Of a stretch of DNA of 64,000 nucleotides, positions 35,628-41,734 are shown piece after piece; the stretch's first letter is position 1, and the number at the start of each line of letters is the position of its first letter. A program made the translations under genes and the position numbers. The stretch covers positions 1,977 through 65,976 of the forward strand of contig JBAZXE010000003.1 of assembly GCA_041659985.1 (NCBI GenBank). The letters are read 5' to 3'. Source of the DNA: Thermoplasmatota archaeon. Its GTDB lineage: Archaea; Thermoplasmatota; E2; JACPAO01; JAHFTW01. Below the pieces are notes generated by a model. It had not been told where the DNA came from, did no database searches, and saw only the letters and a list, made by a program, of their open reading frames with translations.

Positions 35628-35745
35628 GCACGAAACGGTCCTCGCTCTTCGAGCTCGGACACGTTTCGCGCTAGACCGGTCCTTCGGACCCCCCTCGGCC
35701 GGCTCGCAAAGCTCGCGGGCAAGCCCGCTCTTGGCGCGATGGGAC

Positions 35746-35759
35746 GGGCCAAATAGCCG
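35746..35759 (+). promoter_or_regulatory. Shared 14-mer GGGCCAAATAGCCG (TATA-like AAATAG) upstream of paralog P1
   Basis: Identical 14-mer recurs at 38353-38366 upstream of P3. The AAATAG centre is ~26 nt from GTG 35780, the spacing expected for a leaderless transcript. Confidence 0.45.
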
Positions 35760-35779
35760 GACCCAAATCGACGGCCGCC

Positions 35780-37072
35780 GTGATCGAGTGGTCGCACCTG
35801 GACACCTCGTTCGGCGCGCTCATCCGCTCGGGAGTGGGCATCCTCTCGGTGGTGCTTGGCTCCTTCGTGCTCGCGGCCAAGCCCCGGCTCCGGCCTAACA
35901 TGCTGCTCGGCGTGTTCCTCGTGCTAGACGGCCTGACCTACGCCATCTACGCCTTGGCCGGCGGCTTCTCCGACTTCCCGCACAAGGAGCTCGTTGTCCC
36001 CTCGCACGTGGTCACGACCGTCGTCCAGTTCACGCTTGCTGGCCTGCTCCTGGCCTATGCGGTGTCGTTGCTGCGGCGGGCTGGCGCAAGCGGGCCGACC
36101 TGGGCCTTCGCCATCACCGTCTTCCTGTTGTGGGCGACCGGCAATCCGGTCGTCTTCTTCCTCTTCGACATGCGGCCCCCCGTCGAGCTGTTCGGCAGCC
36201 CCGAGGGGCAGGTCGCGGGCATGTGGGACTACACGTCGTTCGGGTTCTACATGGGTGGCGTGGCCTTCGCCTGCGTCGCTCTGCTGGCCTCCCTGCGCCA
36301 CGACCCCGACCATCCTGCCGCGCGGGCCCGCCTTCTGCTGGCGGGGAACTGGCTGGCGGCCATGCTCACCGCCATGGTCGTCGTCGTCTTGGCCGCCGCC
36401 TCCGACCCTTCGTTTGCCGGCCCGTTCGCCCGCATCTTGGCCGTAGTGGGAGCCGCCCTGGTGCTTGGGGTGGCCCTCGGCCTGCTTCGCCTGCCGCGCG
36501 TGGGGCCGTGGAAGGGATGGTGGCCCGTCAGCGTGCTGCTGGCCGGCTTGGCGGTCGCCGTGGTCGAGATGCTGCTCGTCGCGGGCGATGCGCCCTCCGA
36601 CGGAGGGTTCGGGGGCGTGGTCGCGTTGATCGGGGTCGCCGGGGTCGCCTACGCGGTCTTCCGCCTCGACCTCCTCGGCGTGCCGGTCCCGCGTCCGCGG
36701 GCCGGGGTCTTGGCCTCCATCGCGCTGGCGACGCTGTTCATCACCGCCCAGGTCGCGCAGAACTTCCTGAGCGACGAGCTCGGCCTACTGACTGGTGGCA
36801 TCGTCGCTGGCGCCGCGGTCTTCGCGGCTTACCCGCTGCAGAAAGCGGCCGAGAAAGCAATGGAGAAGCGGGCAAGCGGTCCGGATGGCCGGCGGCCGTC
36901 GACCGGGGAGGCGGCCTACCGGACGGCCCTTGGCCTGGCCTTGCGCGACCGCCGCCTGAGCTCAGAGGAAGAGCTGGAGTTGGCGCGGTTGGCGGACCAA
37001 CTCGGCGTCGGCGCAGTCCGGGCGCTGGAGATTCGCGGCGAGGTTGCCGGGAGGCGCACGCGTGGGGCTTGA
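35780..37072 (+). CDS. Polytopic (~11 TM) membrane protein, paralog P1, with conserved C-terminal module and TerB-like tail
   Basis: 430 aa. ~9 variable TM helices, then the conserved block RLDLLGVPVPRPRAGVLASIALATLFITAQVAQNFLSDELGLLTGGIVAGAAVFAAYPLQKAAE and a helical tail (AYRTALGLALRDRRLSSEEELELARLADQLG). Confidence 0.65.
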   Translation: MIEWSHLDTSFGALIRSGVGILSVVLGSFVLAAKPRLRPNMLLGVFLVLDGLTYAIYALAGGFSDFPHKELVVPSHVVTTVVQFTLAGLLLAYAVSLLRRAGASGPTWAFAITVFLLWATGNPVVFFLFDMRPPVELFGSPEGQVAGMWDYTSFGFYMGGVAFACVALLASLRHDPDHPAARARLLLAGNWLAAMLTAMVVVVLAAASDPSFAGPFARILAVVGAALVLGVALGLLRLPRVGPWKGWWPVSVLLAGLAVAVVEMLLVAGDAPSDGGFGGVVALIGVAGVAYAVFRLDLLGVPVPRPRAGVLASIALATLFITAQVAQNFLSDELGLLTGGIVAGAAVFAAYPLQKAAEKAMEKRASGPDGRRPSTGEAAYRTALGLALRDRRLSSEEELELARLADQLGVGAVRALEIRGEVAGRRTRGA

Positions 37073-38363
37073 CCTGTCCGCCGCTGCCCTCATCGGCTGC
37101 GGCACCGGCCTCATCTTCTGCCTGTTCGGCGCGTTCTTCGTGGCGCACGCCAAGGGCAACCGGTTGAACCTCGCGCTCGGCATCGTCTACATCTCAAACG
37201 GCTTGGCGGGCATGGTGCTCTTCCCGGGCGGCATCTTGCTTCCCGAAGAGGAGTTCACGTTCGCCGTGCCCGTGTATGCCATTGCCCTGGCCTTCGACCT
37301 GGTTTCGCTTGCCGGCATGGTCGCCCTCGCAGTGCAGCAGGCCCGGCGCCTGCCTTCGCCTTCACGGCGCATCGTCGCATGGTTCGCGGCGGGCTTGGGG
37401 CTCGCGCTGGCGGCCGCCCTCGCCATCCTTGCACTGCTTGGATTTCCCTCGGAATACACCGGCACGCGATTGGTCTTGTCCTACGTTGACGGCGTCACGT
37501 TCAGGGCATTCTTGAGCGCGTGCGCCATTGTGGCCCTCGTCGGCTTGGAAAGCATCCGTCGCGGCCTCGAGTGGTCGCGAACCGGCGCGGCACTCTTGCT
37601 CGCAGTCTTCCCCATGATGCGCAATGCCTCGAGCGATTTGTCGGTCGCGGTCATTGAGTTTGCGCGACAAACCGACGACCTCGCCACTTATGCATTCCTC
37701 CTGGCGAGCCTGTTGGTCCTTGGGCCAGTTGCCTGGTCCTTGGGGGCCATGGCGGCCCCCAACGGCAAGCACGCGCGAAACTTCCTGCTGCTCGTGGCCG
37801 CCAACATGATCCTGACGGCGTTTCTGCACGCAGCCGTCGGCCCCACACAAAGCGTTCTGCGTGTGGCCGGCATTGTGGCCGTCGCCTCGATGGCCGCGCC
37901 GGCCTACGCGGTGGTGCGCCTTGACCTCCTGCAGACTCGCCTGCCGCGACCCACCATCCGGGCGGGCACACTCGCCTCCATCGGGCTCGGAGCCCTCTTC
38001 ATCACCGCTCAGGTCGCGCAGAACTTCCTCAGCGACGAGCTCGGCCTCTTGACTGGAGGCATCGTGGCTGGCGCCGCGGTGTTCGCGGCCTATCCCTTGC
38101 AGAAGGCGGCCGAGCGGGCGATGGAGGGCCGCGGGCGGGGCGACCCGGCCAAGGCCGAATCGGCGGACAAGTATCGCCGCCTCGTCGAGACCGCCTGGCG
38201 TGATGGGCGCCTCGGGGCCAACGAGCGCCTGCTCTTGGCCGAGGCCCGGCGCCAACTGGGGCTCGATGCCGAGACCGCTTCAAGCATTGACGAAGGGGTC
38301 GCGCGAAAACATGCGGCACGCCCCCAACCACGACGGGGCCGTTCGGTCGGCGGGGCCAAATAG
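37062..38363 (+). CDS. Polytopic membrane protein, paralog P2
   Basis: GTG 37062 (track ORF starts at 37044) overlaps the P1 end by 11 nt. Same plan as P1, with 39 consecutive residues identical to P1. Confidence 0.65.
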   Translation: MGLDLSAAALIGCGTGLIFCLFGAFFVAHAKGNRLNLALGIVYISNGLAGMVLFPGGILLPEEEFTFAVPVYAIALAFDLVSLAGMVALAVQQARRLPSPSRRIVAWFAAGLGLALAAALAILALLGFPSEYTGTRLVLSYVDGVTFRAFLSACAIVALVGLESIRRGLEWSRTGAALLLAVFPMMRNASSDLSVAVIEFARQTDDLATYAFLLASLLVLGPVAWSLGAMAAPNGKHARNFLLLVAANMILTAFLHAAVGPTQSVLRVAGIVAVASMAAPAYAVVRLDLLQTRLPRPTIRAGTLASIGLGALFITAQVAQNFLSDELGLLTGGIVAGAAVFAAYPLQKAAERAMEGRGRGDPAKAESADKYRRLVETAWRDGRLGANERLLLAEARRQLGLDAETASSIDEGVARKHAARPQPRRGRSVGGAK

Positions 38364-38366
38364 CCG
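38353..38366 (+). promoter_or_regulatory. Second copy of 14-mer GGGCCAAATAGCCG, upstream of paralog P3
   Basis: Embeds the P2 stop codon (TAG 38361-38363). Followed by AATCGAAC, compared with AATCGAC after the first copy. ~55 nt upstream of ATG 38414. Confidence 0.4.
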
Positions 38367-38413
38367 CTGCGGAATCGAACAAGCCGTGGCGGCGGCCTGT
38401 GGGGGATTGAGCG

Positions 38414-39757
38414 ATGGACATTGAGTACGCCGCCATCGTCCGGGCCAGCGTCGGCGTCCTGTACGCCCTTCTAGGATTGTTCTTGATCGTTCGGGCGCCG
38501 CGGTCCAAGACGATGGCCGTTTGGGGCGCCGTCTACTTCATCACGGGCAGCATGCGCATTCACGGGAATCTCCTCGTAATCCTGTCCGATAAAACTCTCT
38601 TGTCCACTCTGGACATCCTCATCAGCGTCCTGTTTGACCTCGTCCTCTTGGCACTGCTTGTGGCTCTATTGGTCTTCGCCGCACGACCGCTTCCTCGCAC
38701 GTCGGTCCGCGCCGTCCGCGCCGTCTTTCTGAGCGGATTCGCCATCGCCCTGGCGTACGTCATCTTCGATTCCGGCCCATTCCGCGAGATTCCGGTACGC
38801 CAGATGGCGTTGATCGCCAATAAGGCCGTGGACACTTCGGTGGTCTTCGCAGCAGGGGCGCTCTGGATTGCAATCCTGGAAGGCTTGAGGCGACAGTCGA
38901 TGCCGAAGGCAAAATCCTGGCTTCTGGCTGCGTTTCCCATCGTGGGAACCATCGTCGGAGGGAACGTGGCCAGCCAGATGGACTGGCTGTTCCCCGAGTT
39001 CGTTGTGTTCATCACGGACCTGCCGCCCATCGCGGCGCTTGACGCGTTGACCGCAGTCGTTGCCCTCGTTCCATTGGCCTGGTGCTATGCATTGTTGGGA
39101 GGCCCGAATGGCCGGTTCGTCTGCAACCTGTTGCTGGGCATCTTCGTGTGGATTGCCTTTTCTCTGGCCTACGTGAGGACTGCACCGGAATTCGACGGGT
39201 TCTTCGGGACGGCGCCAGGAATCCTGCGGGTCATTGCCTTGGCTACCATTGGGTACGCCATCGTGGCACGTGATTTCTTGCCGACGGCCCTACGTCTTCC
39301 GACTGCCCGACGCGGGACGCTGGCGGGAGTCGCCCTGGCAAGCCTGATTATCACGGCACAAATCGCGCAGAATTTCCTCGGGGCAAAGTATGGCATCTAC
39401 GTGGGTGGCCTCGTTGCCGGCGGCGTCCTAGTGGCCGCATTCCCGCTGCAACGACGACTCGAGCGCGTCGCGGGAAGTCGCAATCGGAACGAAGCCGATT
39501 CGGAACGTTCGTTCGTCCAGGCCGCCCGAATCGCCCTGCGCGACCGGGTTCTGACCACGCAGGAGGGACTCGACCTACTGGACTTGGCGTTCCAACTGGG
39601 CATACCCCCGCGCCGGGCTACGGCACTAATCGACCAGGAACGCTCCTCCCAGCAAGGCGGTCGCCGCCAGTTGGGGCTCGACGCTGAGACGACTGTTGTC
39701 ATCGACGAAGGGGAAGCGGGGCGCCACGTTTCGTCTTCCAGGAAAAAGCCCGCATGA
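38414..39757 (+). CDS. Polytopic membrane protein, paralog P3 (more divergent, lower GC)
   Basis: 447 aa. Conserved block LIITAQIAQNFLGAKYGIYVGGLVAGGVLVAAFPLQRRLE. The tail carries two LG...ID half-repeats, the second (RRQLGLDAETTVVIDEG) matching the P2 end (RRQLGLDAETASSIDEG). Confidence 0.65.
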   Translation: MDIEYAAIVRASVGVLYALLGLFLIVRAPRSKTMAVWGAVYFITGSMRIHGNLLVILSDKTLLSTLDILISVLFDLVLLALLVALLVFAARPLPRTSVRAVRAVFLSGFAIALAYVIFDSGPFREIPVRQMALIANKAVDTSVVFAAGALWIAILEGLRRQSMPKAKSWLLAAFPIVGTIVGGNVASQMDWLFPEFVVFITDLPPIAALDALTAVVALVPLAWCYALLGGPNGRFVCNLLLGIFVWIAFSLAYVRTAPEFDGFFGTAPGILRVIALATIGYAIVARDFLPTALRLPTARRGTLAGVALASLIITAQIAQNFLGAKYGIYVGGLVAGGVLVAAFPLQRRLERVAGSRNRNEADSERSFVQAARIALRDRVLTTQEGLDLLDLAFQLGIPPRRATALIDQERSSQQGGRRQLGLDAETTVVIDEGEAGRHVSSSRKKPA

Positions 39758-40140
39758 CCTCCAACCGGTTCCCGCTCACCCTTCTGCCGGGCAATATCGC
39801 CGTCTGTCGTCTCGCGCCCGATTCGGAAGTGCCCGACTGGTCGAGCGAGGGGCCGTTCTCGTGCGTGATGCGGACGCCCGACGAACTCTCGATCGTCTGC
39901 GCCGAGGCCGCCGTCCCCGCAGGGATCCAGGCTGAACGTGGGTTCCGCGCGCTCAAGCTCGAAGGCCCGGTTCCGTTCACGACGATCGGCGTCGTGAGCG
40001 GCATGACCAAGCCGCTGGCCGAGGCCGGCATCAGCGTGTTCATCCTCTCCACCTACGACACGGATTACCTCCTGGTCAAGGCGACCGCCCTCGACCGGGC
40101 GGCGAAGGTTCTGGGGCGCGCGGGATTCTCAGTCGCCTGA
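39754..40140 (+). CDS. ACT-domain (ACT_7/CASTOR-like) small-molecule-binding protein
   Basis: 128 aa. Start overlaps the P3 stop (ATGA). The pattern IAVCRL......P.W......F......DELSIVC ... GISVFILSTYDTDYLLVK is typical of ACT_7 proteins. Confidence 0.6.
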   Translation: MTSNRFPLTLLPGNIAVCRLAPDSEVPDWSSEGPFSCVMRTPDELSIVCAEAAVPAGIQAERGFRALKLEGPVPFTTIGVVSGMTKPLAEAGISVFILSTYDTDYLLVKATALDRAAKVLGRAGFSVA

Positions 40141-40204: not shown

Positions 40205-41734
40205 ATGGGCGGGCCGATCAAGTTCAAGCAGAACCTCCGGTTGTTCGAGGCCATCACCATCATCGTCGGCTCGATGATTGGATCCGGCATCTTGCTTCTG
40301 CCCGCCGACATGGCTGAGCTCATGCCAAGCCCCGGCCTCATTCTGCTCGTGTTCGGGGCCGGCGCGGTGCTGACCATCGTCGGAGCCCTGACCTTCGCCG
40401 AGCTGTCGGCCATGTTCCCCCGCGCCGGCGGCCAGTACCATTTCCTCAAGGAGGGCCTGGGCCGCTTCTACGGCTACCTCTTCGGCTGGACGCAGTTCTG
40501 GGTCATCCAGACCGGCATCGTGGCCGGCGTCGCCGTCGCCGTGACGCGCTTCACCAAGTTCTTCGTCGAACGCAACGGCGGCCACCTCGGCGGCCATTCC
40601 GTCCGCTTGACCGAGCTGGTGGACGTCGGCCCCTGCGTGCAGGAAAGCCTCGCCGGCGAGTGCACGAAGCGGCTCATCCACCTCGACCCGTTCACCATCC
40701 CCGCCTGGGGCGACGCCTTCGTCGCCATCGCGGCAATCCTCCTCCTGATGGGGCTCAACATGCTGAGCACCCGCTTCGGCGGCATCGTTCAGAACATCAG
40801 CACCGTCGCCAAGGTCCTTGGCCTGGTGAGCCTGGTTGCCATCATCTTCATCGGCGGCTCCCTCGTCGACGGCGGCTACGAGGCCACGGGCGGCGGTTTG
40901 GCGCCGGAGGGCATGGGCGCCGGAGCCCTTGTCGTCGCCTTCGGCGGCGCCCTCGCGCTCAGCCTCTTCGCCTACGACGGTTGGCCGCAGGCCACCTACG
41001 TCGCCGGTGAGGTGCGCAACGCCAAGCGCAACCTTCCCCTGGCGCTCATTATCGGCCCGCTCATCACCGCGGTCGTCTACATCGCCCTCACGGCGGCGTA
41101 CTTCTACGTCATTCCGATTGATGAGGCGGTCCGGCTCGGCATCAACGACGAGCGCATCGCGCCCGTCGCAGCGGGCAAGGTCTGGGACTACGGCCCGGTC
41201 TACATCAGCGCCGTCGCCCTCGTCTCGGTCTTCGGCACGGTCAACGGCTTCTTGCTTACCGCACCGCGCATCTTCTACGCCTTGAGCCACGACGGCGCCT
41301 TGCTGCCCAGCATGGGCAAGATCAGCAGTCGCGGCACTCCGGCGTGGGCCATCTACTTCACCGCTTTGTGGGCCAGCCTCCTCGTGTTGTCGGGCGGGTA
41401 CCAGCAACTGGTGACCATGGTCGTCTTCGGGATCTTCCTGTTCTACATCCCGACGGCGATTGCCCACATGCGCATGCGCAAGACGCACGCCCACGTCGAA
41501 CGGCCGTTCAAGACCCCGCTCTACCCACTGGTCCCCATCCTGTTCATGCTGGCCAGCGTGTTCATCGTCGGCATCATCCTCGTGGGTTCGCTGCTGCAGG
41601 GACTCATCGCCTTGGTCCTCATCGCCGCCGGCATCCCGGTCTATTTCGCGCAGCGACCGCGCATGATCCGCGTCGAGGCCGAACGCCAGGCCGAGGCCAC
41701 GCCACCGGCCGAACCGGACCCGGCCGTCACATAG
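40205..41734 (+). CDS. APC-superfamily amino acid permease
   Basis: 509 aa, ~12 TM. The N-terminal block LFEAITIIVGSMIGSGILLLP...GAL.FAELSAMFPRAGGQY is typical of APC transporters. Confidence 0.85.
   Translation: MGGPIKFKQNLRLFEAITIIVGSMIGSGILLLPADMAELMPSPGLILLVFGAGAVLTIVGALTFAELSAMFPRAGGQYHFLKEGLGRFYGYLFGWTQFWVIQTGIVAGVAVAVTRFTKFFVERNGGHLGGHSVRLTELVDVGPCVQESLAGECTKRLIHLDPFTIPAWGDAFVAIAAILLLMGLNMLSTRFGGIVQNISTVAKVLGLVSLVAIIFIGGSLVDGGYEATGGGLAPEGMGAGALVVAFGGALALSLFAYDGWPQATYVAGEVRNAKRNLPLALIIGPLITAVVYIALTAAYFYVIPIDEAVRLGINDERIAPVAAGKVWDYGPVYISAVALVSVFGTVNGFLLTAPRIFYALSHDGALLPSMGKISSRGTPAWAIYFTALWASLLVLSGGYQQLVTMVVFGIFLFYIPTAIAHMRMRKTHAHVERPFKTPLYPLVPILFMLASVFIVGIILVGSLLQGLIALVLIAAGIPVYFAQRPRMIRVEAERQAEATPPAEPDPAVT

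Follow-up and report, generated by a model that had tools for sequence, protein, structure and literature searches.

Probable short-tract gene conversion behind an identical transmembrane hairpin in two divergent tandem paralogs of a Thermoplasmatota archaeon

The locus and the shared hairpin

The window discussed here is a stretch of 64,000 nucleotides (nt) from a Thermoplasmatota archaeon (assembly GCA_041659985.1, contig JBAZXE010000003.1, positions 1,977 to 65,976 of the forward strand). This metagenome-assembled draft genome has 151 contigs and is 88% complete. Three neighbouring genes in the window, P1, P2 and P3, are tandem paralogs belonging to a large unannotated family of Thermoplasmatota membrane proteins. 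P1 and P2 share a block of 39 codons that specifies the same residues in both, and the history of this block is the subject of what follows. The genes and the copies of the block are, in window coordinates:

35780..37072, + strand: P1 gene, 430 amino acids (aa), with 11 predicted transmembrane (TM) helices and a C-terminal tail of three helices
37062..38363, + strand: P2 gene, 433 aa counted from the GTG at 37062, which is the gene caller's start; a TTG at 37044 is also possible in the open frame
38414..39757, + strand: P3 gene, 447 aa, the third tandem paralog
36737..36853, + strand: P1 copy of the 39-codon block, covering the outer half of TM10, a short outer turn (SDEL) and TM11; model helices 308-329 and 335-365
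37998..38114, + strand: P2 copy of the 39-codon block
39347..39463, + strand: P3 homolog of the block, with 21 of 39 residues identical to P1/P2

A first-pass annotation of the window reported that the two copies are identical in protein in spite of 12 synonymous differences. Re-translation of both segments shows that this is exact. Each gives the 39 residues FITAQVAQNFLSDELGLLTGGIVAGAAVFAAYPLQKAAE, and the 12 nt differences (codons 4, 11, 17, 18, 20, 23, 28, 31, 32, 33, 34 and 36) are all synonymous. The same annotation described the upstream TM regions as highly divergent, and this too is borne out, with 16-25% aa and 37-43% nt identity between the N-terminal domains of P1 and P2. The two copies of the block lie 1261 nt apart in the tandem genes. 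The only long direct repeat between these genes is a 168-nt segment around the block (36698-36865 versus 37959-38126) that is 82% identical.

Is a perfect match of this kind to be expected in the family? Block identity was compared over 13,348 family pairs whose N-terminal domains are less than 30% identical; the mean is 0.54-0.58 and the 99th percentile 0.82-0.87. A match at 39 of 39 residues occurs in just two of these pairs, one being P1 and P2 of the window and the other window P2 with a fusion gene from a relative (relative B, see below). The P3 homolog shows that the block tolerates many replacements. Therefore, constraint acting across the family does not predict the identity. Some block positions vary, P3 matches at little more than half of the residues, and the window pair is an extreme outlier in the pair screen.

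The family itself is very large. Searching with a profile of 52 members gives 3,769 cluster representatives at E<=1e-3, or 1,237 when the limit is set at E<=1e-30; the clusters are drawn at 50% identity and 3,769 is a lower bound. The top matches are about 400-440 aa long and align over their full length. A fourth paralog of P1/P2/P3 is present on another contig of the same genome. Comparison of P1-P3 with Pfam and NCBIfam gave no meaningful match. The AlphaFold model of P1 has a predicted local distance difference test score (pLDDT) of 88.7 and a predicted template modelling score (pTM) of 0.80. It consists of nine helices up to residue 294, the hairpin (308-329 and 335-365) and a three-helix tail (375-427). 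According to this model the 39-codon block is the last TM hairpin of the family, a part in which confidence is lower (pLDDT 60-76). The positive-inside rule, applied to the loops, puts the N terminus probably outside and the tail in the cytoplasm, with the SDEL turn in the middle of the block probably facing outward. A Foldseek search of the PDB returned no match below E 0.1 for either the full P1 model or the C-terminal module.

A discordant history for the block

The locus can be followed in related genomes, which are labelled A (L035), B (GCA_054606395.1; L036), C (L038) and D (L040), with W standing for the window. The order of genes in the relatives is a GPAT-like acyltransferase, a ferredoxin, one to three family genes, one or more ACT-domain genes and an amino-acid permease. 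There is one family gene at the locus in relatives B, E and G, two in A, C and D, and three in the window.

Trees of separate segments were compared. The N-terminal tree puts W_P2 with A_P2 and C_P2 (Shimodaira-Hasegawa-like approximate likelihood-ratio test, SH-aLRT, 99), and the tail tree puts W_P1 with A_P1 and C_P1 (SH-aLRT 100). Therefore, P1 and P2 are old paralogs, each with orthologs of its own. The block tree is discordant with this, since it places W_P2 amid P1-type sequences (W_P1, B_F and C_P1). The P2 orthologs in two relatives have what can be called a P2-type block centre, differing from the window block at 7 of 39 and 9 of 39 residues. Site counts for the quartet W_P1, W_P2, A_P1 and A_P2 show the same discordance. 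Outside the block 225 sites support grouping by orthology, 11 grouping by genome and 18 a crosswise grouping, whereas the counts inside the block are 0, 6 and 2.

Where along P2 does the affiliation change? One clue comes from diagnostic sites, defined as those at which W_P1 and C_P1 agree with each other and differ from C_P2 and A_P2, which also agree with each other. Upstream of the block W_P2 is P2-type at 22 of 25 such sites. Within block codons 9-27 it is P1-type at every one of nine sites (three synonymous, six replacement), and from codon 40 on it is P2-type again. A permutation run test gives P~1e-5 for the P1-type run, and sliding windows along W_P2 show the same switch from P2 to P1 and back to P2. 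These boundaries define the segments below, and a conversion tract in P2 would accordingly measure no less than 55 nt and no more than about 120 nt.

38024..38078, + strand: minimal candidate conversion tract in P2, block codons 9-27, P1-type at 9/9 diagnostic sites
37995-38114, + strand: maximal extent of the tract in P2, with the P2-type sites of codon -1 and codon 40 as its limits
36763..36817, + strand: P1 counterpart of the minimal tract and putative donor, identical to the P2 tract at 50 of 55 nt

The first-pass annotation had argued that the synonymous differences speak against recent gene conversion. As a case against conversion as such, this does not survive the unbroken run of P1-type sites in the block, the P2-type flanks and the run test. 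Part of the identity needs no conversion at all, because the block ends (codons 1-10 and 28-39) encode the same protein in both gene types regardless. In other words, the match at 39 of 39 residues looks like a composite of two near-invariant anchors and a converted centre. The centre covers the positions of the block that are most variable in the family.

Which copy changed? The proportion of replacement differences (pN) in the permease is 0.035 between W and B and 0.131 between W and A, and these distances make relative A the outgroup. Because A is the outgroup, the P2-type centre in A_P2 and C_P2 is most simply taken as ancestral and window P2 as the changed copy. Thus we infer that sequence moved from P1 to P2. 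A_P1 has a less clean mirror pattern, being P2-type at 5 of 6 sites over codons 11-24, which suggests an independent event in the opposite direction. A conversion from P3 to P2 in relative C was also considered, on the basis of a common AKYG.Y, and was dropped, because the family consensus already has A and Y there.

Recombination in the block can be seen directly elsewhere in the family. The single gene of relative B (L036 8001-9335, JBTSCH010000016.1) resembles C_P1 (89-98% nt identity) up to about block codon 23 and C_P2 (80-93% nt identity) from about codon 45, with mixed states between. This gene is a P1::P2 deletion-fusion that kept a P1-type N terminus and hairpin and a P2-type tail, and the crossover lies in the 3' part of the block or just after it.

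An all-against-all screen of 170 representatives for pairs with divergent N termini and near-identical blocks produced further cases. Of four outlier pairs that were looked up, three consist of genes in the same tandem array, and for the fourth the contig is just 2.4 kb long. The three unrelated arrays are:

L043, 1477-9026: P0092 and P0129, in an array of at least six genes
L044, 125-8993: P0135 and P0140, in an array of at least eight genes
L046, 2238-7293: P0108 and P0110, at least two confirmed family genes among four adjacent genes

Within these arrays, some genes whose N-terminal domains are 16-35% identical have in common a hairpin module of 54-57 residues that is 94-100% identical in protein. 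The hairpin sequence is specific to each array, and between arrays the hairpins are only about 50% identical. Genes g3 and g5 of the L043 array contain 15-codon windows at 100% nt identity across about 25 codons, while the rest of these paralogs is saturated, a pattern for which recent conversion is the sole explanation. At the other extreme, g3 and g4 of the L044 array have 26 silent codon differences and no replacement over 57 codons. The L046 pair has 51 of 54 residues identical and 25 nt differences. The window pair falls between the extremes, and the family continuum fits episodic conversion of short tracts followed by freezing under selection.

Selection, silent sites and rival explanations

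In the alignment of 170 members the block is the most conserved stretch, with a mean frequency of the commonest residue of 0.64-0.74 versus 0.22-0.45 in the N-terminal domain. This supports the view of the block as the most conserved segment of the family. The conservation nevertheless differs from position to position. Q327, G335, G339, A343, G344, F348, P352, Q354 and E358 are near-invariant, whereas about ten positions (332-334, 338, 341, 345, 346, 351 and 357 among them) vary freely. The most variable is residue 338, where the commonest residue reaches just 0.21. Free variation of the block in orthologs had been named in the first-pass annotation as the finding that would overturn its view, and it exists in part. 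The ten or so variable positions and the divergent P2 orthologs are on one side, and the near-invariant positions are on the other.

The strength of selection can be estimated against neighbouring genes. Flanking genes compared between the window and relative B have an omega (ratio of replacement to silent substitution rates) of 0.11. At that value the 12 silent changes in the block should be accompanied by about 5.4 replacements and none is seen. Among the P1-type blocks (W_P1, W_P2, B_F and C_P1) there are at least 24 silent changes versus one replaced codon. The omega of the block is thus roughly 0.02-0.03, and the hairpin is under very strong purifying selection, just as had been proposed at the outset.

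The evidence from silent sites is mixed. Identical codons make up 27 of 39 in the block and 50 of 119 at the aa-identical sites elsewhere in the two genes (Fisher P=0.0027). Two rare codons in the tract are also common to W_P1 and W_P2, namely ACT at T19 (5% usage) and GCT at A24 (7%), with P=0.012 for two such sites. A genome-wide test of codon usage, in which 19.8 identical codons were expected against the 27 seen (P~0.01), was set aside. Its control is too lenient and its result overstated, because codon bias in the block exceeds the genome average, and blocks of unrelated family members have 63% of their codons in common at aa-identical positions.

Dating the event from the silent substitution rate (dS) was also tried and dropped. 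In the permease (window 40205-41734; orthologs L035, L036 and L040) the GC content of third codon positions is 92-98% and the proportion of silent differences is 0.30-0.34 in all pairs, whatever the pN. The permease orthologs of W, A, B and D are near silent-site saturation. Silent sites close to saturation under strong codon bias are a trap for dS dating in this clade. The silent sites of the block are near the saturation level of unrelated blocks, so the claim that any conversion is not recent has stood.

What explanation accommodates all of this? We consider it likely that the identity of the P1 and P2 blocks goes back to an old and short interlocus gene conversion from P1 to P2, after which purifying selection preserved the result. 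The family protein has a fast-diverging N-terminal bundle of nine helices, followed by the conserved hairpin that is its last TM element and by a small, probably cytoplasmic helical tail. After the lineage of the window split from the sampled relatives, a short stretch of the P1 hairpin would have been copied into P2, with the near-invariant block ends supplying the homology for the exchange. Since then both copies would have taken up only silent changes, because the hairpin is under such strong purifying selection. An identical protein with many silent differences looks like pure selection when viewed from one genome. Here it would be an old conversion tract between invariant anchors. The discordant history, the limits of the tract, the strength of selection and the recurrence in other arrays are demonstrated, whereas the direction from P1 to P2, the age of the event and any role of the hairpin are inferred.

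Several observations weigh against this explanation. The 27 of 39 identical codons are within the empirical background of unrelated blocks (0.63; P=0.28). The event is undatable because the orthologs are so close to silent-site saturation. When the 117-nt block is taken by itself, an approximately unbiased (AU) test does not reject a tree with W_P2 among its orthologs (delta lnL 10.7, p=0.10), although so short an alignment has too few sites and gives likelihood tests low power. Parallel selection could in principle account for six of the nine diagnostic sites, since these are replacement sites. Finally, the polarity depends on just two P2 orthologs and on the species order given by a single permease gene.

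The alternative that fares best is selection alone since the duplication, with the centre of A_P2 and C_P2 derived in those lineages. The very low omega of the block is in its favour, and the frozen g3/g4 pair of the L044 array demonstrates that such freezing occurs. Silent sites near the block background and the AU result are also compatible with it. However, F11, K14, V22, V26 and the rare AAT at codon 9, all common to A_P2 and C_P2, are most simply ancestral P2 states with A as the outgroup. Position 19, where the family varies most, is T encoded by the rare ACT in P1 and P2 of the window alike. The mirror pattern of A_P1 does not fit either. The first-pass annotation had explained the identity by such selection, and neither the divergence of the P2 orthologs nor the freely varying positions agrees with it. 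We regard selection alone as unlikely.

What if P1 and P2 are translated together and assemble with each other by way of the hairpin? In this hypothetical scenario matching hairpins would be selected by parallel or co-evolutionary replacement, and no DNA would need to be transferred. The conserved 11-nt overlap of P1 and P2 with its GGAGG (described below) suggests coupled expression, hairpins match within arrays and differ between them, and a GGxxAG small-residue motif together with the lower pLDDT of the hairpin is compatible with an interface. However, six identical replacements would be needed in one copy. The shared rare codons and the synonymous diagnostic sites would be left without explanation, as would the stretches of complete nt identity in L043, and the P1 and P2 hairpins of relative C are unmatched (30 of 39). 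This makes parallel replacement improbable, more so than selection alone. A chimeric or collapsed contig across the repeat, which a draft metagenome could contain, is barely credible, given 12 spaced differences, a longest exact run of about 20 nt that is too short for collapse, and the same architecture and P1-type block in independent assemblies.

Parallels, possible roles and further features

Interlocus gene conversion and concerted evolution of tandem paralogs are familiar from tufA/tufB in enterobacteria and from many eukaryotic tandem families. The window resembles these cases in that a short tract is homogenised in diverged paralogs and its tree is discordant with that of the flanks. 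In addition, the tract lies in the segment of highest identity, and products of unequal crossover (a fusion and changes in copy number) occur at the site. It departs from the usual case in that the tract is old and only 55-120 nt long, its silent sites are nearly re-saturated and the rest of the family is almost unalignable as DNA. Another departure is that the phenomenon recurs in arrays of six to eight or more genes in uncultured archaea. The general pattern has been described (PMC3966223, PMC3728101). A literature search found nothing specific on gene conversion in Thermoplasmatota or on a link to Tic110/TerB (see below). The process is well known and the setting is new, namely a very large unannotated archaeal membrane family in which a hairpin evolves in concert within arrays. 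This draws attention to a family of at least 3,769 clusters in which up to eight or more genes stand in tandem. It also marks the block as the segment to leave out of paralog trees and dN/dS scans in the family.

The last hairpin evolves in concert while the remainder of the protein diverges nearly beyond recognition, which leads to a testable idea: the hairpin may be a common module for interaction or assembly. In other words, co-resident paralogs with different nine-helix bundles would co-assemble through identical hairpins. Episodic gene conversion and selection would keep arrays hairpin-matched, and the block would double as a recombination joint for fusions and copy-number changes. If true, the hairpin would be like a constant region joined to variable regions. 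This would explain how it can be frozen within an array and yet be about 50% identical between arrays. Such an interface is compatible with the coupled P1/P2 junction, with the GGxxAG motif and with the lower confidence of the model in the hairpin. We hold the idea only tentatively and think it is probably not correct as it stands.

What would the variable bundles do? Possibly they are sensor domains like HisKA_7TM (PF16927), the N-terminal 7TM region of histidine kinases, which likewise puts a multi-helix N-terminal bundle before a cytoplasmic part. A divergent family member (L023 754-2031; genome G027, same order) matches the whole HisKA_7TM profile at 36.4 bits against a gathering threshold of 28.6, and this hints that the variable bundle may be related to the 7TM sensor regions. 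In contrast, the profile link to the family as a whole covers the first two helices only (hhalign 90%), the family proteins are without a kinase domain, and they have 11 helices rather than seven. P1, P2 and P3 themselves gave no HisKA_7TM match.

The tail has the motif YRxxxxxAWxDGxxxxxERxxLxxLRxxLGL, in which the D and E of DGxxxxxE are invariant. P1 and P2 carry different types:

36917..37069, + strand: P1 C-terminal tail, type I (ALRDRRLSxEEE...), 92% nt identical to the relative A ortholog
38172..38360, + strand: P2 C-terminal tail, type II (AWRDGRLGANERL...), with remote TerB/DUF533/Tic110-like similarity

The motif aligns with the repeated unit of Tic110 (PF16940), a member of the TerB superfamily along with TerB (PF05099) and DUF533 (PF04391). 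Comparison with the Tic110 unit in PDB entry 4bm5 gives a profile E of 6.8e-6 and three repeat matches. Sub-threshold matches recur among 33 family members, to DUF533 in 12, to TerB in nine and to Tic110 in five. Against the curated cut-offs the best values are 1.2e-4 for TerB and 0.0016-0.0022 for DUF533, all below the gathering scores. The C-terminal model has a pLDDT of 84.5, and Foldseek against the PDB finds nothing for it below E 0.7. Unlike the superfamily, the family tail is one unit of about 50 residues, and it is not part of the 39-codon block. The idea that tail types are often shuffled among the N-terminal types was considered and has limited support. At least seven switches of tail type are counted on an N-terminal tree of 126 members, a count that has no chance baseline and that free shuffling would be expected to exceed by far.

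P3 has its own peculiarity in this region. Its tail contains an extra half unit at 39662-39733 (RRQLGLDAET...IDEG) that resembles the end of the P2 tail at 38247-38318, with 47 of 72 nt identical and the first 10 residues the same. The half unit is the footprint of an older recombination or duplication.

Signals for expression are found at the gene boundaries:

35737..35771, + strand: promoter-like repeat, copy 1, 5' of P1, with core GGCCAAATAGCC at 35747-35758
37050..37072, + strand: P1/P2 junction, with GGAGG at 37050-37054, the P2 GTG at 37062 and the P1 stop at 37070-37072
38344..38378, + strand: promoter-like repeat, copy 2, overlapping the end of P2 upstream of P3

The two copies of the 35-nt repeat are 74% identical around the common core, which is also kept upstream of P1 in relatives A and B. 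The repeat is probably a promoter element, and P2 has no copy of its own. P1 and P2 overlap by 11 nt (GTGGGGCTTGA), and the GGAGG lies 7 nt before the P2 start. An 11-nt overlap is present in relatives A, C and D; its sequence and the GGAGG are kept in A and C and are different in D. Because this junction is conserved in relatives, P1 and P2 are probably translationally coupled.

The N-terminal domain of P1 (35780-36620, up to about residue 280) shares only 37-53% protein identity with the A and B orthologs, compared with 82-95% between A and B themselves and 89-93% for the flanking genes compared between W and B. Starting about 40 codons ahead of the block, the nt identity of P1 to its orthologs is 84-93%. 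Either the domain of window P1 has evolved very fast or it was replaced from an unsampled donor. Farther downstream, between the array and the permease, the window has one ACT_7-type gene (39754-40140) where relatives A, B and D have two.

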